Below are positions 9,887 through 38,671 of a stretch of DNA of 64,000 bases, in pieces. Origin of the DNA: Escherichia phage Ge15; sequence record PP359696.1. One strand, written 5' to 3'. The position numbers were made by a program, and so were the translations under genes. Each line of letters begins with the position of its first letter. The first letter of the stretch is position 1. The notes below the pieces were generated by a model. That model had not been told where the DNA came from, made no database searches, and saw nothing but the letters and a program-made list of their open reading frames with translations.

Positions 9887-10083
9887 TGAAATTCTTTTTG
9901 GGTCAAACTGTTGAATTAAAGGGAGTTGGTATACCTGGATTAATTTCTAAGGTTCTACCTCCATTTAAATGGAGTGGTATTCAAATAAAAGAGGCTTATA
10001 TTGTTTCCTGGGTAGATGGAAATGAAGACCTTCGTATGGGTGATGAATTATCTCCTATCTATGGATTAAAGGAATTAATATGA
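9886..10083 (+). CDS. Hypothetical protein (30.5 position)
   Basis: 65-aa ORF, ATGA-type coupling. Confidence 0.5.
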   Translation: MKFFLGQTVELKGVGIPGLISKVLPPFKWSGIQIKEAYIVSWVDGNEDLRMGDELSPIYGLKELI

Positions 10084-10286
10084 ATATAATTAATAAGATT
10101 TTTGGAATTCAGTACATTAAGGTTACATATAAAGTAACGTATAAAGGTCCGTATACCGATGAACATGAAGAGCCACAAGTTCAGTCTATTATATTAGAAA
10201 AGGACCCTAACTGGCCAGTTGAATTTCGTCTTCCTTGCTATGGTCATTGGGCTGATGTTGAAATTATAAGTATTGAAAATGTCTGA
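10080..10286 (+). CDS. Hypothetical protein (30.4 position)
   Basis: 68-aa ORF. Confidence 0.5.
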   Translation: MNIINKIFGIQYIKVTYKVTYKGPYTDEHEEPQVQSIILEKDPNWPVEFRLPCYGHWADVEIISIENV

Positions 10287-10737
10287 GTTAGAGATAAGAA
10301 GCAATTTTAGATGGCCATCATGTGCATTAAGTAATTTCGCCCAATGGCCTTTTGTTATGGATGGTATCCAATTTGGAGGTCTCGAAGGATTCCTCCAAGG
10401 ATGCAAGGTGAAAAATGTTGAACAACAGCGTCGTATATTTGGGTTATCCGGGCTTGCCGCCCAACAAGCTGGAAGGTCTTATGCTAGAGCTCAGGACCGT
10501 GGGACCCTCTTCTGGCTTGGAGTTCCGTTTTCAAGATACTCCCCAGCGTGGAAAGAATTATACACAAATGCATATTTTGAAGCAGCGTTCCAAAACAAGG
10601 GCTTTCGCGATGCATTACAAGCCTCGAAAGGAAAAGTTTTGAAGCACAGCATGGCTAGTGGTCTAACAAAAGATGATACAATACTAACCGAAGCTGAATT
10701 TATTGATGTGTTAAACCTATTAAGAGACTCTCTATGA
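10273..10737 (+). CDS. Hypothetical protein (30.3 position)
   Basis: 154-aa ORF; locally GC-richer codon usage. Confidence 0.6.
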   Translation: MKMSELEIRSNFRWPSCALSNFAQWPFVMDGIQFGGLEGFLQGCKVKNVEQQRRIFGLSGLAAQQAGRSYARAQDRGTLFWLGVPFSRYSPAWKELYTNAYFEAAFQNKGFRDALQASKGKVLKHSMASGLTKDDTILTEAEFIDVLNLLRDSL

Positions 10738-11597
10738 AGCCTACTATTTTGACTGATATTGATGGAGTATGTTTAAGCTGGCAATCAGGCCTTCCTTATT
10801 TTGCTCAGAAATATAATCTTCCGTTAGAACATATTTTAAAAATGATCCAAGATGAGAAATTTATTTCTCCGGGTAAACTCTTTAATTGTGATGAAGAACT
10901 TGGTGTCAAGTTAATTGAAAAATATAATCGATCAGATTTTATTCGTTATTTGTCTCCATATAAAGATGCACTGTGTGTAATTAACAAATTAAAAGAAGAT
11001 TATAATTTTGTAGCTGTTACAGCATTGGGTGATTCTATTGACGCTCTGTTGAATCGTCAATTTAATTTGAATGCTCTTTTTCCTGGTGCCTTCTCAGAAG
11101 TAATGATGTGTGGTCATGATTCTTCAAAAGAAGAGTTATTCAAAAAGGCAAAAGAGAAATATAACGTAATTTGTTATATTGACGATCTCGCTCACCATTG
11201 CGATCATGCGAGTGAAATATTAAATGTTCCTGTTTATTGGATGGCGCGAGGAGAGCGTGACAATATTCCAAAAACCGCTCAGCGAGTTTATACATGGAAT
11301 GATGTAGAAAATAAGCTTTTTTCGCCGAAGGAAAATAAAGAAAGTTTTGATAATGAAAAAGCTATAAAAGATGTAATTGAGAAGATGGTTAAAAACGATT
11401 CTTTTCGTTGGAACACTACCTGGAGAACTCCTGGATTTAATCCGTATAATCCATATTATACACATCCATATAATCCATATTATACACACCCGTATCATAT
11501 GAATCCATTCCATACGTGGAGTTATACTAAGCCTGGTGATGCAGGGTATTTTAATAGATTTACTAGTGGTGATAATATTTTCCAAGGAGCATTCTAA
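10734..11597 (+). CDS. HAD-superfamily hydrolase-like protein with C-terminal Pro/Tyr-rich repeats (30.2 position)
   Basis: 287 aa; N-terminal HAD motif I ILTDIDGV; C-terminal NPYNPYYTHPYNPYYTHPY repeats; its last 366 bp lie inside the duplicated segment. Confidence 0.7.
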   Translation: MKPTILTDIDGVCLSWQSGLPYFAQKYNLPLEHILKMIQDEKFISPGKLFNCDEELGVKLIEKYNRSDFIRYLSPYKDALCVINKLKEDYNFVAVTALGDSIDALLNRQFNLNALFPGAFSEVMMCGHDSSKEELFKKAKEKYNVICYIDDLAHHCDHASEILNVPVYWMARGERDNIPKTAQRVYTWNDVENKLFSPKENKESFDNEKAIKDVIEKMVKNDSFRWNTTWRTPGFNPYNPYYTHPYNPYYTHPYHMNPFHTWSYTKPGDAGYFNRFTSGDNIFQGAF

Positions 11598-11644
11598 TGT
11601 TTGTCGTTCACACTATTTATGAAAATGAAGGTAATACTACACGT
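11232..11644. repeat. 413-bp direct repeat, copy 1 (3' part of 30.2 plus first 16 codons of 30.1)
   Basis: Identical by eye to 13617-14029; identity stops on both sides at sharp junctions. Confidence 0.9.
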
Positions 11645-11683
11645 CCGTATAATCCATATTATACACATCCATATAATCCATAA
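11597..11683 (+). pseudogene. Truncated 30.1 start fused to repeat-derived sequence
   Basis: MFVVHTIYENEGNTTR (identical to the start of ORF 13982) followed by PYNPYYTHPYNP and a stop; reading frame broken by the insertion junction at 11644/11645. Confidence 0.7.
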
Positions 11684-12108
11684 TTTAATCCGTATAATCC
11701 ATATTATACACATCCTATAAAAAATTAAAATTAACCACAATAAGCGAATTGATTAAAAATATTTATTGTTCATTATCCGTCAGTAATCATCCCGGGCAAA
11801 TGCCCGGGAATTATTCTAGGATTATTTTCTTTGTTAAAAAAGACAAACGGTATTAACTGATGTATTTACTATTTACCGCTCCCTGCAGGGGGGATTATCA
11901 GAATCCGCGGTTATTCATTATTTATATACATTCAATAAAAAAGTAACCTCATAAAAAATCCTGTACTCACAGGGTGATGCGGGATAACTGACGTAAGGAG
12001 TGCTGCAGGGATTTGATTAGACTGGCCCCCTGAATCTCCAGACAACCAATATCACTTAAATAAGTGATAGTCTTAATACTAGTTTTTAGACTAGTCATTG
12101 GAGAACAG

Positions 12109-12474
12109 ATGATTGATGTCTTAGGGCCGGAGAAACGCAGACGGCGTACCACACAGGAAAAGATCGCAATTGTTCAGCAGAGCTTTGAACCGGGGATGAC
12201 GGTCTCCCTCGTTGCCCGGCAACATGGTGTAGCAGCCAGCCAGTTATTTCTCTGGCGTAAGCAATACCAGGAAGGAAGTCTTACTGCTGTCGCCGCCGGA
12301 GAACAGGTTGTTCCTGCCTCTGAACTTGCTGCCGCCATGAAGCAGATTAAAGAACTCCAGCGCCTGCTCGGCAAGAAAACGATGGAAAATGAACTCCTCA
12401 AAGAAGCCGTTGAATATGGACGGGCAAAAAAGTGGATAGCGCACGCGCCCTTATTGCCCGGGGATGGGGAGTAA
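12109..12474 (+). CDS. insC: IS2 OrfA (InsC) transposase DNA-binding subunit
   Basis: 121 aa [56 protein letters not shown]...; A6G slippery motif near the 3' end. Confidence 0.9.
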
Positions 12475-12480
12475 GCTTAG

Positions 12481-13143
12481 TCAGCCGTTGTCTCCGGGTG
12501 TGCCAAACGTGTTTACCGGATCATGCGCCAGAATGCGCTGTTGCTTGAGCGAAAACCTGCTGTACCGCCATCGAAACGGGCACATACAGGCAGAGTGGCC
12601 GTGAAAGAAAGCAATCAGCGATGGTGCTCTGACGGGTTCGAGTTCTGCTGTGATAACGGAGAGAGACTGCGTGTCACGTTCGCGCTGGACTGCTGTGATC
12701 GTGAGGCACTGCACTGGGCGGTCACTACCGGCGGCTTCAACAGTGAAACAGTACAGGACGTCATGCTGGGAGCGGTGGAACGCCGCTTCGGCAACGATCT
12801 TCCGTCGTCTCCAGTGGAGTGGCTGACGGATAATGGTTCATGCTACCGGGCTAATGAAACACGCCAGTTCGCCCGGATGTTGGGACTTGAACCGAAGAAC
12901 ACGGCGGTGCGGAGTCCGGAGAGTAACGGAATAGCAGAGAGCTTCGTGAAAACGATAAAGCGTGACTACATCAGTATCATGCCCAAACCAGACGGGTTAA
13001 CGGCAGCAAAGAACCTTGCAGAGGCGTTCGAGCATTATAACGAATGGCATCCGCATAGTGCGCTGGGTTATCGCTCGCCACGGGAATATCTGCGGCAGCG
13101 GGCTTGTAATGGGTTAAGTGATAACAGATGTCTGGAAATATAG
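12481..13143 (+). pseudogene. insD: IS2 OrfB (InsD) catalytic region, N-terminally truncated and out of the frameshift frame
   Basis: Open frame contains ...[41 protein letters not shown]...[12 protein letters not shown]; opens only after a TAG at 12478-12480 and is in the same phase as orfA instead of -1. Confidence 0.8.
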
Positions 13144-13616
13144 GGGCAAATCCAATAAACAATTGGAATTTACTTCCATTGATCTGTTTACTCAGTGGTT
13201 GTCACTTTTATCGAGAAAGGTTTGCAGAACGCGGGTTTTTTTATAAGGTTCCTGATGTACTGAGGGATTATTTATCAGCTATACCGCTGGAAATAAATGA
13301 AAAGGCACGATACAAACCCGGCATCGCTAACTATCACAATATCATCACATGTGGTTTTTCAACGTTGTTACCCTATATAAGGCACGGCACCATGACAAAT
13401 ACGGGTATTCGCGCCGATAACAACTTCACCTGCAGTTTCATCAATAATTACCTGGTCTGCAATCTGAATATTTTTCTCTTTAACATTAAGCTTCAGATAG
13501 TTTTTCAGTTCCTGTGACAGAAGGTTGGGAATAAGCGGTTGACGCTTCCACCAGTGCGGAATAGCGGGTGGGTTTGTCGCGCTGAGGTTCGCGTCCAGTA
13601 AAAAAGGCAATAAGTC

Positions 13617-14029
13617 GTTTATTGGATGGCGCGAGGAGAGCGTGACAATATTCCAAAAACCGCTCAGCGAGTTTATACATGGAATGATGTAGAAAATAAG
13701 CTTTTTTCGCCGAAGGAAAATAAAGAAAGTTTTGATAATGAAAAAGCTATAAAAGATGTAATTGAGAAGATGGTTAAAAACGATTCTTTTCGTTGGAACA
13801 CTACCTGGAGAACTCCTGGATTTAATCCGTATAATCCATATTATACACATCCATATAATCCATATTATACACACCCGTATCATATGAATCCATTCCATAC
13901 GTGGAGTTATACTAAGCCTGGTGATGCAGGGTATTTTAATAGATTTACTAGTGGTGATAATATTTTCCAAGGAGCATTCTAATGTTTGTCGTTCACACTA
14001 TTTATGAAAATGAAGGTAATACTACACGT
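13617..14029. repeat. 413-bp direct repeat, copy 2
   Basis: Identical by eye to 11232-11644. Confidence 0.9.
13626..13982 (+). pseudogene. 5'-truncated duplicate of the 30.2 3' region
   Basis: Encodes the same 118 C-terminal residues as ORF 10734-11597 (MARGERDNIPKTAQRVYTW...); lacks the HAD N-terminal domain and its own expression signals. Confidence 0.75.
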
Positions 14030-14251
14030 GATTACGGTCACGTAAATCAATTTTTTAGATGCAATCCAGAATTCCGAGCTCAAAAAGACGAACGAATTTT
14101 TAAAAAATGTGTAGAGCAAGGTTTCATTTACGTCAAGCACTGGATGCAAGGAAATAAAGTTAGAACTACATATCATAAGTCTTTGCCTGAGCTTAATGAT
14201 GAATTGATTTATAATAGAGCTGTAAACCAAACTTTGAAGGATGAGCAATGA
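13982..14251 (+). CDS. Hypothetical protein (30.1 position)
   Basis: 89-aa ORF; start overlaps the stop of the upstream frame (TAATG). Confidence 0.6.
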   Translation: MFVVHTIYENEGNTTRDYGHVNQFFRCNPEFRAQKDERIFKKCVEQGFIYVKHWMQGNKVRTTYHKSLPELNDELIYNRAVNQTLKDEQ

Positions 14252-15711
14252 TTCTTAAAATTCTGAATGAAATAGCATCTATTGGATCAACTAAACAGAA
14301 GCAAGCAATTCTTGAAAAGAATAAAGATAATGAATTGCTTAAACGGGTATATCGTCTGACTTATTCTCGTGGGTTACAGTATTATATCAAGAAATGGCCT
14401 AAACCTGGTATTGCTACCCAGAGTTTTGGAATGCTGACTATTACCGATATGCTTGACTTCATTGAATTCACGTTAGCTACTCGGAAATTGACCGGAAATG
14501 CTGCAATTGAGGAATTGACTGGATATATCACCGATGGTAAAAAGGATGATGTTGAAGTTTTGCGTCGAGTGATGATGCGAGACCTTGAATGCGGTGCTTC
14601 AGTATCTATTGCAAACAAAGTTTGGCCAGGTTTAATTCCTGAACAACCTCAAATGCTGGCAAGTTCTTATGATGAAAAGGGCATTAGTAAGAATATCAAA
14701 TTTCCAGCCTTTGCACAGTTAAAAGCAGATGGAGCCCGGTGTTTTGCTGAAGTTAGAGGCGATGAATTAGATGATGTTCGTCTTTTATCACGAGCTGGTA
14801 ATGAATATCTAGGATTAGATCTTCTTAAGGAAGAATTAATCAAAATGACTGCTGAAGCCCGCCAGATTCATCCAGAAGGTGTGTTAATTGATGGCGAATT
14901 GGTATACCATGAGCAAGTTAAAAAGGAACCAGAAGGCCTAGATTTTCTTTTTGATGCTTATCCTGAAATTAGTAAAGCTAAAGAATTCGCCGAAGTAGCG
15001 GAATCTCGTACTGCTTCTAATGGAATCGCCAATAAATCCTTAAAAGGAACCATTTCCGAAAAAGAAGCCAAATGCATGAAGTTTCAGGTCTGGGATTATG
15101 TCCCGTTGGTAGAAATATACGGTCTTCCGGCGTTTCGTTTAAAATATGATGTACGTTTTTCTAAACTAGAACAAATGACATCAGGATATGATAAAGTAAT
15201 TTTAATTGAAAACCAGGTAGTAAATAACCTAGATGAAGCTAAGGTAATTTATAAAAAATATATTGACCAAGGTCTTGAAGGTATTATTCTCAAAAATACC
15301 GATGGATTGTGGGAAAATGCTCGTTCAAAAAATCTCTATAAATTTAAAGAAGTAATTGATGTTGATTTAAAAATTGTAGGAATTTATCCTCACCGTAAAG
15401 ACCCTACTAAAGCAGGTGGATTTATTCTTGAATCAGAGTGTGGAAAAATTAAAGTAAATGCTGGTTCAGGCTTAAAAGATAAAGCCGGTGTAAAATCACA
15501 TGAACTTGACCGTACTCGCATTATGGAAAACCAAAATTATTATATTGGAAAAATTCTAGAGTGCGAATGCAACGGTTGGCTAAAATCTGATGGCCGCACT
15601 GATTACGTAAAATTATTTCTTCCAATTGCGATTCGTTTACGTGAAGATAAAACTAAAGCTAATACATTCGAGGATGTATTTGGTGATTTTCATGAGGTAA
15701 CTGGTCTATGA
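14248..15711 (+). CDS. 30: ATP-dependent DNA ligase
   Basis: 487 aa; adenylation motif KADGAR (Lys159); near-identical to recalled T4 DNA ligase. Confidence 0.96.
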   Translation: MILKILNEIASIGSTKQKQAILEKNKDNELLKRVYRLTYSRGLQYYIKKWPKPGIATQSFGMLTITDMLDFIEFTLATRKLTGNAAIEELTGYITDGKKDDVEVLRRVMMRDLECGASVSIANKVWPGLIPEQPQMLASSYDEKGISKNIKFPAFAQLKADGARCFAEVRGDELDDVRLLSRAGNEYLGLDLLKEELIKMTAEARQIHPEGVLIDGELVYHEQVKKEPEGLDFLFDAYPEISKAKEFAEVAESRTASNGIANKSLKGTISEKEAKCMKFQVWDYVPLVEIYGLPAFRLKYDVRFSKLEQMTSGYDKVILIENQVVNNLDEAKVIYKKYIDQGLEGIILKNTDGLWENARSKNLYKFKEVIDVDLKIVGIYPHRKDPTKAGGFILESECGKIKVNAGSGLKDKAGVKSHELDRTRIMENQNYYIGKILECECNGWLKSDGRTDYVKLFLPIAIRLREDKTKANTFEDVFGDFHEVTGL

Positions 15712-15945: not shown

Positions 15946-18042
15946 ATGATGGAACTCATTACAGAATTATTTGACGAAGATACTACTCTTCCGATTACAA
16001 ACTTAAATCCAAAGAAGAAAATACCACAAATTTTTTCAGTTCATGTTGATGACGCAATTGAACAACCAGGCTTTCGTTTATGTACCTATACATCTGGAGG
16101 TGATACTAATCGCGATTTAAAGATGGGCGATAAAATGATGCATATTGTTCCTTTTACATTAACTGCTAAAGGTTCAATTGCTAAATTAAAAGGTCTCGGT
16201 CCAAGCCCAATTAATTACATCAATTCAGTTTTTACTGTTGCGATGCAGACGATGCGTCAGTATAAAATTGATGCCTGTATGCTTCGTATTCTTAAGTCTA
16301 AAACTGCTGGTCAAGCTCGTCAAATTCAACTTATTGCTGATAGACTTATCCGCAGTCGTTCAGGTGGCAGATACGTCCTTCTTAAGGAACTCTGGGATTA
16401 CGATAAAAAGTATGCATATATTCTTATACATCGCAAAAATGTATCACTAGAAGACATTCCAGGAGTTCCAGAAATTAGCACCGAGCTCTTTACTAAAGTT
16501 GAATCAAAGGTTGGTGATGTTTATATCAATAAAGATACTGGAGCTCAAGTAACTAAAAATGAGGCAATTGCTGCATCTATTGCGCAAGAAAACGATAAAC
16601 GTTCTGACCAAGCTGTAATCGTTAAAGTTAAAATTTCCCGTAGAGCAATTGCACAAAGTCAATCATTAGAATCTTCTAGATTTGAAAGTGAATTATTCCA
16701 AAAGTATGAATCTACCGCAGCTAATTTCAATAAACCTGCTACGGCTCCTTTAATTCCCGAAGCAGAAGAAATGAAGCTTGGAATTAATTCATTAGCTTCT
16801 AAAACTAAAGCAGCAAAAATTATTGCTGAAGGAACTGCAGATGAACTTCATTATGACTATAAATTCTTTTCAAAAAGTGAGGTTAATGAAGTTTCTGAAA
16901 AAATTAAAGATGTAATTCTTAATGCGATTAAAAATGAACCAACTACTTCAATAAAATGTTTAGAGAAATACGCAGCAGCTGTTAATCAATTATTTGAAGA
17001 ATATAAAGATAATTGGCTTGATAAACATAATAAAACCCGTAAAGGACAGCCAGATGAAGTCTGGGAAGAAATGACTAAAAATTCCTGGAACGCAGCAAAA
17101 ACTAAATTCCTCAAAAGAATGATTTACAGCTTTTCTGGAATTGGTGCAGGTCCAATGATTGATATTACTATTGCCCGTGATGGTTCTAAATATACTCCAT
17201 CACAAAAGCGTGGCATTAGAGAGTATTGCGGTTCAGGATATACTGACATCAATAATCTTCTTTTAGGACGCTACAATCCAGAACGATATGATGTAATGAG
17301 TGAAAAAGAAATTGAATCTGCTATAAATAACTTAGATTCAGCTTTTGAAAATGGTGACCGTATACCAGAAGGCATTACAGTTTATCGTGCTCAAAGCATG
17401 ACTGCTCCTATATACGAAGCACTAGTTAAAAATAAAGTGTTCTATTTCAGAAATTTTGTATCTACTTCTTTAACTCCTATCATTTTTGGACGTTTTGGAA
17501 TTACGCATACTGGTATTGGTCTTTTAGAACCAGAAGCTCGTAATGAATTGACAGTTGATAAAAATGAAGAAGGAATAACTATTAATCCAAGCGAAATAAG
17601 AGCGTATAAAGAAAATCCTGAATACGTTAAAGTTCAAATAGGATGGGCAATTGATGGAGCTCATAAAGTTAATGTTGTATATCCAGGAAGTCTCGGAATA
17701 GCAACAGAAGCTGAAGTTATTCTACCACGAGGATTGATGGTCAAAGTTAATAAAATAACTGATGCTTCTAATAATGACGGAACAACATCTAATAATACAA
17801 AACTCATTCAAGCTGAAGTTATGACTACGGAAGAACTCACCGAATCAGTCATTTATGACGGTGACCGTCTAATGGAAACTGGTGAAGTAGTTGCAATGAC
17901 AGGTGATATTGAAATAGAAGACAGAGTTGACTTTGCATCATTTGTTTCATCAAATGTTAAACAAAAAGTAGAATCATCTCTTGGAATTATTGCGTCTTGC
18001 ATAGATATTACAAACATGCCTTACAAGTTCGTTCAAGGATAA
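15946..18042 (+). CDS. alt: Alt-type mono-ADP-ribosyltransferase, packaged in the head (paralog 1)
   Basis: 698 aa; N-terminal MELITE|LF capsid-targeting/gp21-cleavage-type sequence; C-terminal R (VYRAQ), STS (FVSTSL) and ExE (EAEVILPRG) motifs. Confidence 0.85.
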   Translation: MMELITELFDEDTTLPITNLNPKKKIPQIFSVHVDDAIEQPGFRLCTYTSGGDTNRDLKMGDKMMHIVPFTLTAKGSIAKLKGLGPSPINYINSVFTVAMQTMRQYKIDACMLRILKSKTAGQARQIQLIADRLIRSRSGGRYVLLKELWDYDKKYAYILIHRKNVSLEDIPGVPEISTELFTKVESKVGDVYINKDTGAQVTKNEAIAASIAQENDKRSDQAVIVKVKISRRAIAQSQSLESSRFESELFQKYESTAANFNKPATAPLIPEAEEMKLGINSLASKTKAAKIIAEGTADELHYDYKFFSKSEVNEVSEKIKDVILNAIKNEPTTSIKCLEKYAAAVNQLFEEYKDNWLDKHNKTRKGQPDEVWEEMTKNSWNAAKTKFLKRMIYSFSGIGAGPMIDITIARDGSKYTPSQKRGIREYCGSGYTDINNLLLGRYNPERYDVMSEKEIESAINNLDSAFENGDRIPEGITVYRAQSMTAPIYEALVKNKVFYFRNFVSTSLTPIIFGRFGITHTGIGLLEPEARNELTVDKNEEGITINPSEIRAYKENPEYVKVQIGWAIDGAHKVNVVYPGSLGIATEAEVILPRGLMVKVNKITDASNNDGTTSNNTKLIQAEVMTTEELTESVIYDGDRLMETGEVVAMTGDIEIEDRVDFASFVSSNVKQKVESSLGIIASCIDITNMPYKFVQG

Positions 18043-18045
18043 ATC

Positions 18046-20103
18046 ATGGAACTTATTACAGAATTATTTGACGGCGCTTCGGCGCCGGTTGTTAACTTAA
18101 ATCCTAAGCATAAAATACCTCAAATTTTTGCTATTCAAACCGGTGAAGAAAGCGTGCTTCCTGGATTTAGATTTTGTACATACACCTCTGGCGGTGATAC
18201 AAATAAAAACGTTAAGCCAGGCGATAAAATGATGCATATCGTAATGATAGGTGTTAATGAGAAACTATCATTAGTTAAACTTAAAAACTTGGGTGGAAAT
18301 CCAATTGGTGTCATTAATGCGGTTTTTGATACTGCTCTTCAAACAATGAAACAGTATAAAATTGACGCATGCCTATTCCGCGTACTAAAAAGTAAAACAA
18401 ATGGTGCAGCTCGTCAAATGCAAGTTATTGCTGACCGTTTAGTACGTACTAAAGGAGCAGGTCGATATGTTCTTTTAAAGGAAATCTGGGATTACGATAA
18501 AAAGTATGCATATATTATGGTTTACCGTAAAAATGCCAATTTAGAAGACATTCCAGGTGTACCTCCTATTTCAACTGAGTTATTCACAAAAGTTGAATCA
18601 AAGGTTGGTGATGTTTATGTAGATGTTAAAACAGGTAATGCTGTTCCTAAAGCTGTTGCTGTTGCTGCTTCTATTGCTTTAGAAAATGATAAGCGCACGG
18701 ATCAAGCTGTTATTCAGAAAACTAAAATTAGTCGTCGATTGGCAGCACAAGCTCAATATTCTACTGTCGATGCTTCGCTTCAGGGTGATAGCTTCGCTGC
18801 CAAGAAATATCAAGAGTTTGAATCTAAAGTTCCGGTATATAAAGCAGAAGGACCAATGAACTCTGGTGTTATTCAGATTGGTTCAAACTTCAGCAAAGGA
18901 GCTATCGGTGGTATGAGAAGTGCTTCTCGTTTTAAATCTAACGATTATGAACTAGAAAGCTTCCGAAATCATATTGCATTGGCTCATGCACGTTTACGTG
19001 ATCCGTCTATCAGACTGCAGAGCGATATAACACATCAAGGTTCTCAAGAATATTTAAAGAATAAAGAATTTTTTGATTATAAAACCGATAAAATTTTGAG
19101 CGATCTCGCTGACATTAATATTTCTAATAGCTTTGATGTTATTAAGAAAATTATCAATGATTTAGTTAAAGGTTCTAAAGCCACGCCAGACGAAAAGGTA
19201 GCTATTATTCAATTTGTTATGAATGGCATTTATAAATTGATTAATGAATCTGCTGCTCAGGCATATGAATACGCAAGCACCGAAGTAACTCCAAAAGGAT
19301 TAACTCAGGCTGAGTCTGATGTAATAGAAGATTATTGTGCAGATTCATATGTTGAAATGAACTCGTTCCTCTTGGGTAAACCAGATTCTACCCGTGAAGA
19401 ATACATGGAACGAGCTATTAAACACATCGAGACAATGGATTCTGCATTCGCTAAAGGTTCAGTTCTTCCTCCAGGAACTACGCTTTATCGTGGACAAGAA
19501 GTTACTTTTAAAACTTTACGTCATAATATTGAAAATAAAATGTTCTATTTCAAGAACTTCGTATCCACATCGCTTAAACCAAATATCTTCGGTGAGCATG
19601 GTAAAAACTATATGGCTCTAGATGATTCCGGCGCAGTATTTTCTGGCGAAGGAGAAGGTTCAGTTGATGCTGAAGATTTAATGCATATGGGTAGTCACTC
19701 TGCTTATGCGAATGAAGACGCTGAAACTAGCGTAGGTATGGTAATTAAAGGGGCTGAGCGAATCAAAGTTATCGTTCCAGGTCATTTATCAGGATTTCCA
19801 TCAGAAGCTGAAGTTATTTTACCGCGTGGAATTTTGCTGAAGATTAATAAAGTGAGCACGTACATGATGAAAGAAACTGCTTATAATAAGTATCTAATCG
19901 AAGGCACAATCGTTCCTCCTTCTGAACAATTAGAAGAATCGGTATATGATGGCGATCATCTAATGGAAACTGGTGAAGTTCGTCCAATGGCTGGGTTTAA
20001 TCAATTCCTTGTAGAAGAATCAAAAGAAGAGGAAAACGAAGTTTCTCAAATCTTGGCTTCTTTGGTTAACATCAACGGAATGTCTAAAAAGTTCAAGATG
20101 TAG
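18046..20103 (+). CDS. Alt-like mono-ADP-ribosyltransferase (paralog 2)
   Basis: 685 aa; same N-terminal MELITELFD and conserved first ~230 aa; divergent middle; retains R (LYRGQ), STS, ExE (EAEVILPRG). Confidence 0.8.
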   Translation: MELITELFDGASAPVVNLNPKHKIPQIFAIQTGEESVLPGFRFCTYTSGGDTNKNVKPGDKMMHIVMIGVNEKLSLVKLKNLGGNPIGVINAVFDTALQTMKQYKIDACLFRVLKSKTNGAARQMQVIADRLVRTKGAGRYVLLKEIWDYDKKYAYIMVYRKNANLEDIPGVPPISTELFTKVESKVGDVYVDVKTGNAVPKAVAVAASIALENDKRTDQAVIQKTKISRRLAAQAQYSTVDASLQGDSFAAKKYQEFESKVPVYKAEGPMNSGVIQIGSNFSKGAIGGMRSASRFKSNDYELESFRNHIALAHARLRDPSIRLQSDITHQGSQEYLKNKEFFDYKTDKILSDLADINISNSFDVIKKIINDLVKGSKATPDEKVAIIQFVMNGIYKLINESAAQAYEYASTEVTPKGLTQAESDVIEDYCADSYVEMNSFLLGKPDSTREEYMERAIKHIETMDSAFAKGSVLPPGTTLYRGQEVTFKTLRHNIENKMFYFKNFVSTSLKPNIFGEHGKNYMALDDSGAVFSGEGEGSVDAEDLMHMGSHSAYANEDAETSVGMVIKGAERIKVIVPGHLSGFPSEAEVILPRGILLKINKVSTYMMKETAYNKYLIEGTIVPPSEQLEESVYDGDHLMETGEVRPMAGFNQFLVEESKEEENEVSQILASLVNINGMSKKFKM

Positions 20104-20155
20104 TTTACAAGTCCCTCGTGTTGTGTTACAATAGTTTTACTGACATAACATGAGG
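20103..20155 (+). promoter_or_regulatory. Second copy of the GTTTAC + SD-sequestering hairpin cassette
   Basis: Near-identical to 1700-1752 (GTTTACAAGTCCCTCGTGTTGTGTTACA...CTGACATAACATGAGG); precedes ORF 20164. Confidence 0.55.
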
Positions 20156-20163
20156 AACACAAA

Positions 20164-31878: not shown

Positions 31879-33297
31879 ATGGCTTTTACAGTTGATATAA
31901 CTCCTAAAACACCGACAGGGGTTATTGATGAAACTAAGCAGTTTACTGCTACACCCAGTGGTGAAACTGGAGGCGGAACTATTACATATGCTTGGACTGT
32001 AGATAATGTTCCACAAGATGGAGCTGAAGCAACTTTTGATTATGTATTAAAAGGACCTGCTGGACAAAAGACTATTAAAGTAGTTGCAACAAATACACTT
32101 TCTGAAGGAGGCCCGGAAACGGCTGAAGCGACAACAACTATCACAGTTCAAAATAAGACACAAACGACTACCTTAGCTGTAACTCCTGCTAGTCCTGCGG
32201 CTGGAGTGATTGGAACAGCCGTTCAATTTACCGCTGCCTTAGATTCACAGCCGCCAGGTGCATCTGCTACGTATCAATGGCACGTTGACGGTTCTCCTGT
32301 AAGCGAAGCAACTGACGCTACATTCAATTACACTCCTGACACAAGCGGAGTTAAAACAATTAAGTGTGTAGCTCAAGTAACCGCGACAGATTATGATACA
32401 AAGGAAGTTACTTCCAATGAAGTGTCACTGACTGTTAATAAAAAGACGCAGACAACTACATTAGCCGTAACTCCTGATAGTCCTTCAGCTGGAGTAATTG
32501 GAACCCCAGTTCAATTTACTGCTGCCTTGGTTTCTCAACCTGTTGGAGCGTCTGCTACATATAAATGGTATGTAGATGATTCACAAGTTGGTGGAGAAAC
32601 TAACTCTACATTTAACTATACTCCAACTACAAGTGGAGTAAAAAGAATTAAATGCGTAGCGCAAGTAACGGCAGAAAATTACAATGAAAAGGAAGTTACT
32701 TCTAATGAAGTATCATTGACAGTTAATAAGAAGACAATGAATCCACAAGTTACATTGACTCCTCCTTCTATTAACGTTCAGCAAGATGCTTCGGCTACAT
32801 TTACGGCTAATGTCACTGATGCTCCAGAAGAAGCACAAATCGAATATTCATGGAAGAAAGATTCTTCTCCTGTAGAAGAATCAACTAATGTATACACCGT
32901 TGATACATCATCTATCGGAAGTCAAACTATTGAAGTTACTGCCACTGTTACTGTCACTGATTATGATAGCAAAACTATCACAGCAGAAGGTCAAGTTCAG
33001 GTAACTGATAAAGTTGCTCCAGAACCAGAAGGTGAATTGCCTTATGTTCATCCTCTTCCACATCGTACTTCAGCTTATATCTGGTGCGGTTGGTGGGTTA
33101 TGGATGAAATCCAAAAAATGACAGAAGAAGGTAAAGATTGGAAAACTGAAGATCCAGATAGTAAATACTACCTGCATCGTTACACCCTTCAGAAGATGAT
33201 GAAAGACTATCCAGAAGTTGATGTTCAAGAATCACGTAATGGATACATCATTCATAAAACTGCTTTAGAAACTGGTATCATCTATACCTATCCATAA
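31879..33297 (+). CDS. hoc: Hoc head outer capsid protein, 4 Ig-like domains + capsid-binding C-terminal domain
   Basis: 472 aa; tandem Ig-like repeats; C-terminal domain ...PYVHPLPHRTSAYIWCGWWVMDEIQKM...; about 96 aa longer than the ~376 aa I recall for T4 Hoc. Confidence 0.9.
   Translation: MAFTVDITPKTPTGVIDETKQFTATPSGETGGGTITYAWTVDNVPQDGAEATFDYVLKGPAGQKTIKVVATNTLSEGGPETAEATTTITVQNKTQTTTLAVTPASPAAGVIGTAVQFTAALDSQPPGASATYQWHVDGSPVSEATDATFNYTPDTSGVKTIKCVAQVTATDYDTKEVTSNEVSLTVNKKTQTTTLAVTPDSPSAGVIGTPVQFTAALVSQPVGASATYKWYVDDSQVGGETNSTFNYTPTTSGVKRIKCVAQVTAENYNEKEVTSNEVSLTVNKKTMNPQVTLTPPSINVQQDASATFTANVTDAPEEAQIEYSWKKDSSPVEESTNVYTVDTSSIGSQTIEVTATVTVTDYDSKTITAEGQVQVTDKVAPEPEGELPYVHPLPHRTSAYIWCGWWVMDEIQKMTEEGKDWKTEDPDSKYYLHRYTLQKMMKDYPEVDVQESRNGYIIHKTALETGIIYTYP
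32152..32724 (+). repeat. Tandem duplication of an Ig-like domain coding unit inside hoc (2 x ~285 bp)
   Basis: Units 32152-32436 and 32437-32724 are roughly 80 percent identical at protein level (NKTQTTTLAVTPASPAAGVIG... vs NKKTQTTTLAVTPDSPSAGVIG...). Confidence 0.85.
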
Positions 33298-34912: not shown

Positions 34913-36194
34913 ATTCATCAATGATAATTTTTGGTAGCTTAACACCTAATAAAACAGACAAATCTGAACGACCCGCCATTTTATCCATGTCTCCACCGTC
35001 AATTACTCTTGCTTCTTTTTCATCTTTTGCTACAGTGTAAGGATTTGCAGATAAAGCATATCTAACTAATAAACCGATAGATGGCTGCAAACTTTCTGGA
35101 TCAACTACAACTTTAAATGCACCTACATGTTCAGGGTCATCTAAGTCAAGACCTTCTGTATACGGAGCATAGAAAATTGACCCAACAATTTCTTTTTCAC
35201 CAATATTTTCTACTACGCCAACGATTACATAATCTAATGGGCTGTTGGTATCGCAATAAAGCGGTAAACCATTAGCTAAGAACCCATAGGCATTTTGTGA
35301 AAGATATTTGTCATCTTCTGGTTTATGTTTTAACCAACCTGATGCAGCAAGAATCGCAGCAGCACGAGCTGAAGCAACACAGAACGTTGCTGTATAAGTT
35401 GATTCTTTCTGGATATGTGAAACCATTTCACACACCATTCGGTATAATGAACGACCGGCTTCAGGTGCAGATGCATAACTCAAATCAATGAATCCAGTAT
35501 CAGTAATTCCTGTAACTTTATAGCGTTTTGACACTGTAATCAAAGACTGCAGAATATCTTTATTGATTTCATCTGCCATTTCGGTTGCAAGCAAATCTTC
35601 CAAGAAATTAGGAGCATCGAATCCATTTGCTTCTAAATCTTGTGCTAATTCAACTGTAATGCCAGTTTTAAGTTTACGAGATTTAACTGCGGTTTGCCAT
35701 TTATTAATCTGGAATCTAGCATCCGCAATTTCACTATCAGAGCTTTCAAATTTGCTTGTTACTGCAGCATCAGAAAATAGACGAACCTTTAAAAGAACAA
35801 TTGCAATCTGAAGAGCTAATTCTAAATCACTTTCTTCAATATCAGCAAATGGTGTATTTTCTAATACTTTATAAACGATATTATTATATTTGAATAAATC
35901 ACCTTTATTGAGAGTTAATTTAGACTCTTCTGTTAATTCTGTGATTTGTTCTCGGTCTACATACCCAGCTTCGCCAGCGTAAGTAGCACCAGTTTTAAAT
36001 GTAAATTCATTGTCTGGGTTAAGGTATTTGATACCATAAAAAGCAGCAACAGGTTGATTAGTTCTTTGCGTTGCTACAATGTCAGAATATATTAATTTAG
36101 TGGTAGCGCGAGTCAAAGCAACGAGATTTGGGCGACCGATTGAGTTGCTATTCGTTGTGGTTGATTCGCGCAGAAGTTCGTTGATTTTAGCCAT
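34911..36194 (-). CDS. 24: Capsid vertex protein
   Basis: 427 aa; paralog of the major capsid protein; synteny. Confidence 0.92.
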   Translation of the reverse strand: MAKINELLRESTTTNSNSIGRPNLVALTRATTKLIYSDIVATQRTNQPVAAFYGIKYLNPDNEFTFKTGATYAGEAGYVDREQITELTEESKLTLNKGDLFKYNNIVYKVLENTPFADIEESDLELALQIAIVLLKVRLFSDAAVTSKFESSDSEIADARFQINKWQTAVKSRKLKTGITVELAQDLEANGFDAPNFLEDLLATEMADEINKDILQSLITVSKRYKVTGITDTGFIDLSYASAPEAGRSLYRMVCEMVSHIQKESTYTATFCVASARAAAILAASGWLKHKPEDDKYLSQNAYGFLANGLPLYCDTNSPLDYVIVGVVENIGEKEIVGSIFYAPYTEGLDLDDPEHVGAFKVVVDPESLQPSIGLLVRYALSANPYTVAKDEKEARVIDGGDMDKMAGRSDLSVLLGVKLPKIIIDE

Positions 36195-36221
36195 TGCGCT
36201 TTCCTTTTGGTTTATATGATT

Positions 36222-36229
36222 TATTTATA
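36222..36229 (-). promoter_or_regulatory. Late promoter (TATAAATA) for gene 24
   Basis: Plus-strand TATTTATA 28 nt upstream of the minus-strand start at 36194. Confidence 0.65.
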
Positions 36230-36244
36230 CCATAAAAACAACTA

Positions 36245-36262
36245 AAGGGACCCGAAGGTCCC
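36245..36262 (-). terminator. Hairpin downstream of gene 23
   Basis: agggacc-cgaa-ggtccct stem between gene 23 stop and gene 24 promoter. Confidence 0.55.
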
Positions 36263-36277
36263 TTAAATCGTCAAAGA

Positions 36278-37843
36278 TTAGATACCTTTAACATATACAC
36301 GGCGGAAGTAAGCGTTTTTACCAAGGCTATTCAGAATAGAAGGCATACCGCTCTGGATGCGAGAAGCCGGAGCCTGAGCAGCGGATTCTGCAAATGGGTT
36401 GATACCGATACCGTAACGAGTTTTGAATCCCATTACTGGTTGGAAGTTCTTCGGATCGGAACCACGCAGCGGAGTCAGAGCTACATATGGAGCGTAGTAA
36501 ATACCAGCATCCATTTCGTTCGGACCTTTATAACCTACAGTGAAATAATCCTGTTTAGCATACTGGTCGATATATACACGGTATTTACCACCCAGAACAC
36601 CAGCAAATACTGACTTGGTAGTATCAGTGTTAAAGCCGGTAGCCAGACCCTGTGCAGCATAAGAAATGCCAGTATCAACTGAAGCCAGAACGTTAACTAC
36701 GTTACGGGAAGCGATAATGAAGTTACCTTCACCGCGACCGGTCTGACGAGCAATTTCAACTGCTTCTTTGTCAATCTGGAACAACAGAGCTTTAAAGGAT
36801 TCACCCGCCCAGCGAGCACCACGAATATCAATCGGATCCTGGAAGTCAAATACGCCAGCTTTAGAACCCGGAGTCAGGGTCATACCAGATTTACCAACCT
36901 GAGCTGAGTAATTAATCCAATCAACAACTTCGCGGTTGATTTCCAGCATGATTTCGGTAGCCAGAATACCAGACAGTTCAGCATCAGCATCCATACCGTG
37001 AACAGCGCGGAGGTCTTGTGCTAATTCGATAGAGTAAGCAGCTTTCAGCTGACGAGATTTAGCTTCGATAACTTGTTTATCGATACGGAAGCCCATTTCA
37101 TTCCATGGGTTATCGGTAGAACCGTTGAAACCTTCCTGAAGTTCAGCGATAGAAGTAGCCATACCTTCAGCGATTTCTACCAGTACACCAGCTTCCATTT
37201 GTTTCTTAACTTCGGCATCTAATTTAGTTGCATCAGTCGCGCCAGAATCAAGTGTTACGATAGCAGAAGCTTGCAGATATACAGTACCAGTTTCCTGGAA
37301 GAAGTGAGAATAGATGTCACCTACAACTGTAGTAGTATTAGCAGCCAAAGCTGGGAATTTCTTAGCAGCACCCTGACCAGAGAACATTGCATCTGGACCA
37401 TACATTGGGTGGAATGCTTCTTTAGCACCGGAAGCGATTGGGTCTTTACCATATACTGCGCGCAGTGCGAATACCTGACCAGTCGGGCTGTTCATCGGCT
37501 GAACACCGCAAATACCGAAAGCAATCAGGTTAGGAATAGCACGACGTACCATACCCATAACAGCTGGGCCAATCTGAGTTACTGCGCCAGAAGTCTGACC
37601 AGCAGCGATGTTAGTAGCGTTGTAACCGTGGTCACCACCGATTTCAGCTTCTGTTAAGAAAGAACCGAACGCCTGAGCGATTTTTTCGTCTTTGTACTCT
37701 GGAGCTGTCTGGAAATCTTTTTCCTGGTTTTCAAAGATTTTAGCGATAATCGCTTGTTTGCTATTAGCAATTTCCGGTAAACCTTCACCTTCCAGTAATG
37801 GTTTCCATTTGTTCAAAAGTTCAGCTTTAGTTTTGATAGTCAT
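36278..37843 (-). CDS. 23: Major capsid protein
   Basis: 521 aa MTIKTKAELLNKWKPLLEGEGLPEIANSKQAII...; matches recalled T4 gp23 precursor. Confidence 0.97.
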   Translation of the reverse strand: MTIKTKAELLNKWKPLLEGEGLPEIANSKQAIIAKIFENQEKDFQTAPEYKDEKIAQAFGSFLTEAEIGGDHGYNATNIAAGQTSGAVTQIGPAVMGMVRRAIPNLIAFGICGVQPMNSPTGQVFALRAVYGKDPIASGAKEAFHPMYGPDAMFSGQGAAKKFPALAANTTTVVGDIYSHFFQETGTVYLQASAIVTLDSGATDATKLDAEVKKQMEAGVLVEIAEGMATSIAELQEGFNGSTDNPWNEMGFRIDKQVIEAKSRQLKAAYSIELAQDLRAVHGMDADAELSGILATEIMLEINREVVDWINYSAQVGKSGMTLTPGSKAGVFDFQDPIDIRGARWAGESFKALLFQIDKEAVEIARQTGRGEGNFIIASRNVVNVLASVDTGISYAAQGLATGFNTDTTKSVFAGVLGGKYRVYIDQYAKQDYFTVGYKGPNEMDAGIYYAPYVALTPLRGSDPKNFQPVMGFKTRYGIGINPFAESAAQAPASRIQSGMPSILNSLGKNAYFRRVYVKGI

Positions 37844-37861
37844 TTGTGTTAACCTTTAAAA

Positions 37862-38671
37862 TTAGAAACGAGATGCGACTTTCGCATATACACTTACAAT
37901 ATCTTCTGCACCAGGTGCAGCTTTATCTTCTACAGCTTCAGTGACGAAATTCAGTCCGGCTGCTTCAGTATCAGGAGTATTTATACCCTCAGTAATAGTG
38001 CTTTCATCTTTATTAGACTTCTTCACCATTTCTACGATGGCACTCAATTTACTTGAGAATTCATCTGAATAATCCATACCTTCGACCAGAGCAGAGACTT
38101 TTTCTTTTTGAGACTCAGTCAGATCTTTAGTACTTTCGCTCAATGCCACTTCACGCTGCACATAATTGATATATGCGTCACGCTTATTGAGTTCTTCGAA
38201 CAGACGAGCTGATTCTTCTTTATGTTCTTGCAGCTCTTCTTCCATTTCAGCTACAACATCAACTGATTCTTCTGGAACAACAACGTTGTGTTCAACAAAG
38301 AGCTCTTTTAATCCACCAAGCATGGATTCAAACAGTTCGGCTTTGATGCCTTTATCAACTGCTAATTTATTTTCAGCGAGCCATTCTTTCGCAAGATGGT
38401 CGATGAATTTAGAAGCTTGCTCAGCGATTTTCTTCTCAGCTTTTTCTTCGGCTTCTTCTTTATTTTTTTCTACTTCTTCTTCTGCTTTTTCAGCAATTTT
38501 AGCGATATGAGATTCAGCTAATTTAACGGCGTGCTGCTTGACGGTAGCTTCGAATACAGTGCCGAAAGTTTCTTTTGCTTCCGGAGAAATATTAACTGAT
38601 TCGAAAATACTATCAAGAGCAACGGAAGCATCAATTTTCTGCGCTTCGGCAATCAGTTGTTCTTTAAGCAT
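37862..38671 (-). CDS. 22: Prohead core scaffolding protein
   Basis: 269 aa; acidic coiled-coil protein; synteny. Confidence 0.9.
   Translation of the reverse strand: MLKEQLIAEAQKIDASVALDSIFESVNISPEAKETFGTVFEATVKQHAVKLAESHIAKIAEKAEEEVEKNKEEAEEKAEKKIAEQASKFIDHLAKEWLAENKLAVDKGIKAELFESMLGGLKELFVEHNVVVPEESVDVVAEMEEELQEHKEESARLFEELNKRDAYINYVQREVALSESTKDLTESQKEKVSALVEGMDYSDEFSSKLSAIVEMVKKSNKDESTITEGINTPDTEAAGLNFVTEAVEDKAAPGAEDIVSVYAKVASRF

Follow-up and report, generated by a model that had tools for sequence, protein, structure and literature searches.

A K-12 DNA mosaic around a deleted IS2 in the genome record of Escherichia phage Ge15 looks like a one-off chimera of the sequenced sample

In Campbell-type integration, and in the related use of T4 insertion/substitution vectors, perfect direct repeats bracket foreign DNA, each interrupted gene is left as one intact and one truncated copy, and loss of the insert by recombination between the repeats is predicted. 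A second point of comparison is the tandem duplications and illegitimate recombination events of T4 and E. coli, among them the homology-independent joins attributed to type II topoisomerases and the templated insertions of MMBIR/FoSTeS; here duplications run head to tail, extra sequence lies at the joint, short pieces are templated nearby and the joins lack homology. Illegitimate recombination in T4 proceeds mostly through short homologies, and the classical T4 cases and MMBIR have 2–15 nt of microhomology and contain no host DNA. In phage assemblies, an exact repeat around junk sequence is the classic mark of an untrimmed circular overlap, and typical graph misjoins pass through shared k-mers.

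The locus described here lies in a window of 64,000 nucleotides, the whole stretch that was analyzed, from Escherichia phage Ge15 (record PP359696.1), and resembles each of these systems in part. It shares the repeats and the paired intact and truncated genes with Campbell-type integration; however, it has no vector, origin or marker, and its insert is an eight-piece mosaic for which no donor circle is known. The duplication, the filler at its joint and the homology-less joins recall the recombination events, whereas the sequence shared at its junctions amounts to only 0–2 nt and the four host loci involved are linked by one insertion sequence. Its IS2 resembles the K-12 element in that both retained parts are 100% identical to it, both inverted repeats are present and orfA is intact, but it is 194 bp shorter, its fusion is broken and its flanks come from different K-12 IS2 loci. 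Like chimeric contigs and untrimmed overlaps, the block has an exact repeat around laboratory-host DNA in one assembly only, host pieces on the scale of sequencing reads and an isolated mismatch, although the junk is ordered around IS2 and not random, and its junctions contain no shared k-mers. Overall, the block gives the impression of a chimera that arose once, in this sample, and not of a feature of phage gene transfer, with about even odds that this chimera arose as an assembly error or as an accident of phage growth.

Anatomy of the repeat and the insert

Compared base by base, 11232–11644 and 13617–14029 are identical at all 413 positions and cannot be extended by a single base pair at either side, which bears out the perfect direct repeats described in the initial annotation; the pair is the sole long perfect repeat of the window. 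The first copy holds the 3΄ part of gene 30.2 and the first 16 codons of 30.1, the second a startless 3΄ fragment of 30.2 and the start of the intact 30.1, and each copy is continuous with one native flank. As had also been claimed, an intact 30.2 lies upstream and an intact 30.1 downstream, so that one whole copy of each frame is retained. Gene 30.2 (10734–11597, plus strand) is a listed open reading frame of 287 aa with a 24-bp-period repeat encoding NPYNPYYTHPY at approximately 11436–11500; its product is labelled a HAD-like hydrolase or deoxyribonucleotidase in some phage records, and a Pfam search with the protein matched no family. Gene 30.1 (13982–14251, plus strand) encodes 89 aa matching DUF3045 (Pfam PF11243, E = 5.6e-63). 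A truncated frame, 30.1' (11597–11683, plus strand), can be read across junction 11644/11645 as 16 native codons, 12 codons from a re-copied 30.2 repeat and a stop. The downstream neighbour, gene 30 for DNA ligase (14248–15711, plus strand; 487 aa; Pfam DNA_ligase_A_M), lies outside the rearrangement.

The 1,972 bp between the repeats (11645–13616) had been described as a non-phage block carrying IS2. The IS2 assignment holds, both retained parts of the element being 100% identical to K-12 IS2; the picture of a single non-phage block does not, since the first 71 nt are phage DNA, re-copied from the 30.2 repeat. Nucleotide by nucleotide, the insert is fully accounted for by phage or K-12 chromosomal sequence, in a mosaic of eight segments, and no origin, marker, plasmid or vector sequence was found in it. 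The GC content is 0.53–0.58 inside IS2 versus approximately 0.35 for the phage. Of the two phage pieces, both on the plus strand, piece a (11645–11682) exactly matches phage positions 11442–11479 and piece b (11683–11715) exactly matches 11435–11467, so that both were copied from 165–210 nt upstream of the break. The exact repeat in 30.2 is only 20 nt long, and pieces a and b do not follow its graph-node boundaries.

The remaining segments are K-12 DNA, all on the plus strand. First comes a piece (11716–11780; 65 nt, 100% identical to 7348–7284 of locus L004) of the left flank belonging to the IS2 copy in the ygiL/yqiG fimbrial operon, at positions –68 to –4 relative to the left end of that IS2. 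It is followed by the left flank of an IS2 adjacent to an intB-type integrase gene (11781–12017; 237 bp, 100% identical to 3001–3237 of L002), which represents positions –246 to –10 and stops short of the 9 nt (GGTCCCTTG) found just before IS2 in K-12. A terminator-like hairpin is present within this piece at 11790–11809. The deleted IS2 occupies 12018–13154, precisely the limits first assigned to it, and leads through a natural K-12 junction (13154/13155) into the right flank of the IS2 in the ETT2 region, at the orgA/mxiK pseudogene (13155–13383; 229 bp, positions +1 to +229); this flank and the 3΄ part of IS2 together show 99.9% identity to K-12 over 884 nt. The right flank of the yaiX/yaiP IS2 (13384–13616; 233 bp, 100% identical to 4378–4610 of L001) completes the insert and covers positions +47 to +279, without the 46 nt closest to the element.

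Thus, no host piece reaches farther than 279 nt from an IS2 end; all have the orientation of IS2, with the inner flanks adjoining the element and the outer flanks beyond them, and two of them are free of IS2 sequence. The four host insertion sites match K-12-lineage genomes at 100%. The only mismatch to K-12 in approximately 1,900 nt of host DNA is at 13262 (G instead of A), and this G occurs in none of the complete E. coli genomes among the best matches listed. The initial annotation proposed a comparison of 11716–12017 and 13155–13616 with E. coli; these stretches match at four K-12 loci and not at a single one. One contiguous host block was accordingly rejected, as four distinct K-12 loci contributed to the insert and 71 nt of it are phage DNA. 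Relative to IS2 transcripts, all pieces are oriented as sense or read-through sequence.

The IS2 copy measures 1,137 bp versus 1,331 bp at full length, as nt 1–484 are joined to nt 679–1331 at 12501/12502 and nt 485–678 (194 bp) are missing. Both terminal inverted repeats are present, and the left end coincides exactly with IS2 nt 1. The orfA frame is intact (12109–12474; Pfam HTH_Tnp_1), and the catalytic part of orfB survives as a 206-aa remnant (12523–13143; Pfam rve/rve_3) that is cut off from the orfA–orfB frameshift fusion and does not share the reading frame of the orfB stub upstream of it. The transposase is thus broken, and judging from the reading frames the OrfAB fusion can no longer be encoded. 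The 206-aa frame is itself widespread wherever IS2 is interrupted and is uninformative. No 5-bp target-site duplication was found at the IS2 ends (...TTGAT on the left, ATAAA... on the right); the ends abut K-12 DNA of two different loci, and phage DNA begins 373 nt and 462 nt away.

These segments meet in eight new junctions, at 11644/45, 11682/83, 11715/16, 11780/81, 12017/18, 12501/02, 13383/84 and 13616/17, where the microhomology amounts to 1, 2, 0, 0, 0, 1, 1 and 0 nt, respectively, approximately the level expected by chance. The value at 11682/83 is best read as 0–2 nt shared, the boundary being ambiguous by approximately 1 nt.

The locus in related phages and sequence collections

We compared the locus with related phages. 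The flanking sequence matches 658 phage records, none of which covers at least 80% of the query, and all 40 matches listed pass directly from 30.2 to 30.1, spanning approximately 1,216 bp (1,215–1,222) versus 3,601 in the window. The alignments of related phages stop exactly at 11644 and restart at 13617. At 33 related loci on approximately 31 distinct contigs, 30.2, 30.1 and gene 30 follow one another with no intervening DNA; the identical 30.2 protein is found on four other contigs, always with 30.1 directly next, the identical 30.1 protein in 388 collection blocks, directly after 30.2 on 10 of the 10 contigs shown, and the identical gene 30 protein on 23 contigs. The claim that the 1,972 bp have no counterpart was thus upheld in every relative examined. 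A contig from run SRR25221740 that is 100% identical to 9945–11644 (1,700 bp) continues with the wild-type 30.2/30.1 junction and terminates 7 nt beyond its position. Elsewhere the consensus of the window is clean: aligned with three relatives over 12 kb, it shows 0 gaps. No relevant literature was found on IS2 or host DNA within T4-like genomes, or on run SRR25221740.

The junctions are unique to this record. Every junction searched was absent from the E. coli genome, plasmid, phage, viral, metagenome and genome collections; the junction of the yqiG and intB flanks was absent from 100,044 species genomes, and that of the IS2 deletion from the metagenome and genome collections. When a 140-nt query across this deletion was run against complete E. 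coli genomes, intact IS2 copies tied in the ranking, leaving this query without discriminating power. At least 80% of the insert is covered in 0 of 5,426 complete E. coli genomes and 0 of 72,556 plasmids, and a mosaic that pre-existed in the host strain or on a plasmid is accordingly unsupported. IS2 itself matches 9 of 50,697 phage records, none of them T4-like: eight are near-full-length matches (Stx-converting phages, SfX, PhiR11_1 and phi456), and the remaining one, a Vequintavirus, has a 381-nt fragment only.

Origin of the block

The reading we prefer, at a probability of approximately one half, is that the block arose as an artefact of library preparation, scaffolding or finishing and does not belong to the heritable phage genome. 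The phage would have been grown on E. coli K-12 and then sequenced, and its genome finished. Host reads of low depth would have persisted in the data set, mainly those anchored in the multi-copy IS2, and short pieces tied to IS2 through the read length or read-pair distance would have been chained outward in one orientation and abutted without overlap. This host junk may then have come to separate the ends of the circularly permuted phage contig, whose 413-bp self-overlap, if left untrimmed, would appear as a direct repeat on either side. The block would then have no function, and the true sequence would run from 11644 to 14030, that is, ...ACTACACGT directly onto GATTACGG...

Several observations favour this course of events. 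Recruitment anchored in IS2 would directly explain why the host pieces cluster within 279 nt of IS2 ends; by our estimate, which takes the approximately seven matching places per K-12 chromosome as IS2 copies, only about 0.1% of the K-12 genome lies so close to one. These distances are on the scale of a read or a paired-end insert, the lone mismatch at 13262 is as expected from single-read depth, and the junk is bracketed by an exact repeat. The foreign DNA is that of the laboratory host and is absent from all relatives, being missing from the approximately 31 related contigs and the 658 phage records, while an otherwise identical contig has the wild-type junction. That the searched junctions occur in no collection and that no T4-like phage is among the IS2 matches also point to an artefact.

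The junctions constrain how such an artefact could have been made. A graph misjoin through shared k-mers was rejected, because the junctions share 0–2 nt only. For the same reason, a de Bruijn graph assembler could not have made these joins without spanning reads, and an artefact therefore requires that pieces were abutted, whether by a scaffolder, by a gap closer or through concatenation by hand. Chimeras formed by random ligation while the library was prepared were rejected because the host pieces are clustered at IS2 and share one orientation; this removes the simplest wet-lab artefacts and counts against an artefact in general. Pieces a and b, moreover, look more like polymerase template switches, and the clean remainder of the window argues in the same direction. 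Amplification chimeras and template switching by a reverse transcriptase were considered and are unsupported. Displacement-amplification chimeras are mostly inverted and contain microhomology, and K-12 has, to our knowledge, no reverse transcriptase.

On a rival reading, which we regard as possible but doubtful, the block is a genuine rearrangement that took place in infected K-12 cells, in which the 413 bp were duplicated in tandem and filler was added where the copies meet. A phage end, either broken or nascent, would have left its template at 11644 and re-copied the 30.2 repeat twice over short distances, and could then have copied, or been joined to, short fragmented host DNA. Recombination-dependent replication driven by UvsX may have paired dispersed IS2 copies and so brought the IS2 loci together, until the end rejoined phage DNA 413 bp upstream, at 11232; joins free of homology could have been made by ligase or by subunit exchange of a type II topoisomerase. 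The duplication joint does hold sequence copied from nearby, as is typical of serial template switching, and the constant orientation and IS2-centred order of the pieces fit pairing guided by IS2 homology. No gene is destroyed and the consensus elsewhere is clean. Furthermore, a short-read graph assembly would need several reads at all eight junctions, which would suggest a molecule present in multiple copies.

The same rearrangement would sidestep a difficulty raised by the initial annotation, which considered host DNA unexpected in a phage with intact denA and alc. We confirmed the intact alc, and a GIY-YIG frame is located where denA is expected. The argument appears weaker than it was put, as the host sequence may have been copied by the phage replisome: from T4 biology, DNA made in this way would carry modified cytosine, so that exposure to the denA/alc nucleases would be limited to the initial step of capture. 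We can suggest, tentatively, that a virulent T4-like phage with modified cytosine captured K-12 DNA by copying and not by physical incorporation, through template switches between paired IS2 copies. Such a variant would be viable, since intact 30.2 and 30.1 are kept and an additional 2.4 kb fits headful packaging; it would also be unstable, the 413-bp repeats predicting that recombination between them removes the insert frequently and precisely, and may represent only part of the population, taken up into the consensus by the assembler.

However, host DNA of this kind is found in 0 of 658 related phage records and 0 of approximately 31 related contigs, and the same phage sequence exists without the insert. 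Eight junctions would have to arise in one lineage, and they share 0–2 nt compared with the short homologies usual in T4, so that the few nucleotides expected of MMBIR-like events or T4 illegitimate recombination are lacking. The rearrangement also offers no biological reason why every host piece should end within 279 nt of IS2, and the mismatch at 13262, which is found only here, points to a small number of supporting reads.

We further considered a circle of 2,385 bp, made up of the 413-bp phage segment and the 1,972-bp mosaic. It might have entered the genome by a single crossover of the Campbell type, as with the T4 insertion/substitution plasmids, or might have been a separate molecule that replicated via its phage homology, in which case its place in the genome would be the work of the assembler alone. 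A single crossover yields precisely this architecture, with the shared segment as the perfect repeats, and a separate circle sharing 413 bp would be indistinguishable from an integrated copy in an assembly graph. During T4 infection, plasmids that share homology with the phage replicate and integrate, as is reported from the work of Kreuzer, Selick and Alberts. Yet the insert contains no replication origin, marker or vector sequence, the genome and plasmid collections yielded no donor, and the origin of such a circle would itself be unexplained, which makes this course of events improbable. The insertion-duplication and the chimeric assembly proposed at the outset are both still live options; the circular donor suggested for the former was not found. 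Finally, ordinary transposition of IS2 from the host chromosome into the phage genome is so improbable as to be negligible and, as a clean event, is refuted by the anatomy, for despite the two inverted repeats and the exact left end, neither end touches phage DNA, no target site is duplicated, the element lacks 194 bp and cannot make the fused transposase, and transposition yields neither a 413-bp duplication nor flanks of four loci.

Implications for T-even-type phages

If the block is an artefact, the record would be corrected by removal of 11645–14029 or, equivalently, of 11232–13616. It would then serve as a warning that host insertion sequences in the genomes of lytic phages need read-level proof, especially when bracketed by repeats, and that such proof should precede claims of gene transfer, of a safety risk in phage therapy or of transposition into phages. 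Should the block prove real, it would document a mosaic of host DNA in a T-even-type genome for the first time and would make the copying of host sequence by recombination-dependent replication testable in a phage that destroys the DNA of its host. It would then offer a snapshot of how phages that degrade host DNA may acquire host sequences.

Gene arrangement around the direct repeats

Comparison of the window with itself gave a perfect match of exactly 413 bp between 11232-11644 and 13617-14029, with an abrupt end and no fading of identity on either side. Gene 30.2 (10734-11597, 287 aa) ends within the upstream copy, which also bears the first 16 codons of 30.1, and the downstream copy begins within 30.2 and runs on to an intact 30.1 (13982-14251, DUF3045) and then to DNA ligase. 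These ORFs and the exact base identity bear out the perfect repeats, the intact upstream 30.2 and the intact downstream 30.1 described in the initial annotation. No further long perfect repeat and, besides the insert, no further stretch of host-like GC was found in the 64-kb window.

Less exact repeats and local features were also present. Within 30.2, a repeat of 24-bp period (11436-11500, and 13821-13885) encodes NPYNPYYTHPY, and the protein measures 278, 279, 281, 286, 287 or 290 aa in relatives, which suggests copy-number slippage. In the related record ON645936.1 (5406-5674 of the fetched locus L042), 30.1 is broken into a pair of short ORFs (43 and 35 aa), which may mean either that the gene is dispensable or that the record is erroneous. 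A 288-bp unit is present twice in tandem at 32143-32718 (76% identity), and GC reaches 0.44 over 2 kb at 36001-38000 vs ~0.35 in the rest of the phage. Tandem Alt-like ADP-ribosyltransferase paralogues lie at 15946-18042 and ~18043-20100 (71-80% nucleotide identity), an arrangement likewise seen in relatives; the exact 698-aa first copy had no record in the protein-position index. A 54-nt sequence occurs twice, 18.4 kb apart and at 96% identity (1700-1753 and 20103-20156), immediately upstream of alc in one case and immediately downstream of the second Alt-like gene in the other; it may have a common role in regulation or recombination.

The insert is absent from related phages

A query was matched by 658 phage records; among the matches listed, its two halves adjoin and span ~1,216 bp (1,215-1,222), vs 3,601 bp in the window. 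We also fetched 33 related loci (~31 distinct contigs) by exact matches to the 30.2, ligase, 30.1 and 30.7 proteins. All 33 had the order 30.2, 30.1, gene 30, and alignments of relatives to the window broke off at 11644 and restarted at 13617, in agreement with the earlier claim that the insert has no counterpart in the T4-colinear order. A 1,707-bp contig (Logan SRR25221740_1198) was 100% identical to window 9945-11644, compared with ~97% for other relatives. Because this contig reads on into the wild-type 30.2/30.1 junction, the same phage sequence exists without the insert. The contig, an independent one identical over 1,700 bp, ends at window-equivalent 14036, 7 nt past the position at which the rearrangement starts, and no polymorphism among 23 relatives accounts for this break. 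This end position may be fortuitous, with a probability of a few per cent; alternatively, it may point to DNA ends or breaks that recur close to the CACGTG palindrome (14025-14030).

The mosaic was likewise not found in 5,426 complete E. coli genomes, 72,556 plasmids (at least 80% coverage of the insert for both) or 50,697 phage records. The junction strings searched were absent from IMG/VR, JGI metagenomes and 100,044 species genomes, and junction-crossing ORFs had no record among 153 billion gene positions. IS2 matches occurred in nine of the 50,697 phage records, none of them T4-like: eight contained a near-full-length element (Stx-converting phages, SfX, PhiR11_1 and phi456), and the ninth, a Vequintavirus, a 381-nt fragment. 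The latter, Escherichia phage BP9 (PP488543.1, virulent, rV5-like), is the sole lytic-type record with IS2 sequence in this set; it carries the first 381 nt of IS2, from nt 1, at 95.8% identity (L048, the fetched BP9 record, 2501-2881), annotated as InsA and overlapping the 3΄ end of rIIB.

Composition and origin of the insert

Every nucleotide of the insert was traceable to the phage or to K-12. Two re-copies of the 30.2 internal repeat come first, 11645-11682 (from phage 11442-11479) and 11683-11715 (from 11435-11467), with sources 165-210 nt upstream of the break. They are followed by left flanks of IS2 in ygiL/yqiG (11716-11780, positions -68 to -4) and of IS2 by an intB-type integrase (11781-12017, -246 to -10; the 9 nt abutting IS2 in K-12 are absent). 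IS2 itself comprises nt 1-484 (12018-12501, 100% identical to K-12 IS2) and nt 679-1331 (12502-13154), with 194 nt deleted in between. Right flanks follow from IS2 in the ETT2 orgA/mxiK pseudogene (13155-13383, +1 to +229, with the natural IS2-flank junction) and in yaiX/yaiP (13384-13616, +47 to +279). The loci are defined by their neighbouring genes, independently of the MG1655 copy names, which we take to be I, K, H and A, respectively. Except for one mismatch at 13262, the host pieces were 100% identical to K-12-lineage genomes. The single host block carrying IS2 that had been proposed is therefore replaced by pieces of four IS2 loci preceded by phage DNA (11645-11715).

These pieces follow a regular pattern. 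No host piece extends more than 279 nt from its IS2 end, all are IS2-oriented, and their arrangement (I, K, IS2, H, A) is onion-like. The outermost two, I and A, are free of IS2 sequence, each being trimmed on its IS2-facing side. Only ~0.1% of the K-12 genome is this close to an IS2 copy; the clustering is therefore not random. At the new junctions, eight in all, the shared sequence amounts to 1, 2, 0, 0, 0, 1, 1 and 0 nt, which is the chance level for blunt joins.

We consider an artefact the leading explanation, at a probability of about one half. The host DNA is that of a laboratory strain, its pieces are of read or insert scale and anchored on a multi-copy element, the lone mismatch fits single-read depth, and an exact repeat around junk resembles the overlap left untrimmed in a circularly permuted contig. 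Small IS2-linked pieces would have been chained via read pairs and then abutted, a route that would reproduce the common orientation, onion order and blunt joins. The weak points are that such a step is presumed, that the ends of pieces a and b (the two 30.2 re-copies) fall elsewhere than at graph-node boundaries, and that the consensus is clean in the rest of the window (0 gaps in 12 kb).

A genuine rearrangement in infected cells, in which serial template switches and joins without homology would have given a tandem duplication with filler, is a lesser but serious possibility. IS2 homology may have brought the loci together, and the variant may be just a subpopulation. This would account for the pieces templated nearby and for the junctions needing support from several reads, although a single lineage would have to acquire all eight junctions and the 279-nt limit is left without a reason. 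The architecture resembles T4 tandem duplications, but the insert junctions lack microhomology.

A 2.4-kb circle, integrated or just threaded in by the assembler, is improbable. The insertion-duplication suggested initially shares its architecture with Campbell-type events, but no donor circle is known for the insert. On these two defining features, the donor and the microhomology, the insert falls outside both classes. A known plasmid donor is excluded, as none of the 72,556 plasmids searched holds the mosaic. Also excluded are a graph misjoin via shared k-mers (junctions share just 0-2 nt), random ligation of contaminating fragments (host pieces cluster at IS2 in one orientation) and a single transduced host block (four separate loci). 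The element is a true IS2 that retains both inverted repeats and orfA, but it is defective, since the 194-nt loss cuts the catalytic rve domain, out of frame, from the frameshift fusion; ordinary transposition is rejected on this ground and because there is no target-site duplication, IS2 never touches phage DNA and the flanks come from four loci.

The initial observation was correct and the caution attached to it justified: most likely, the insert is no genuine part of the phage.
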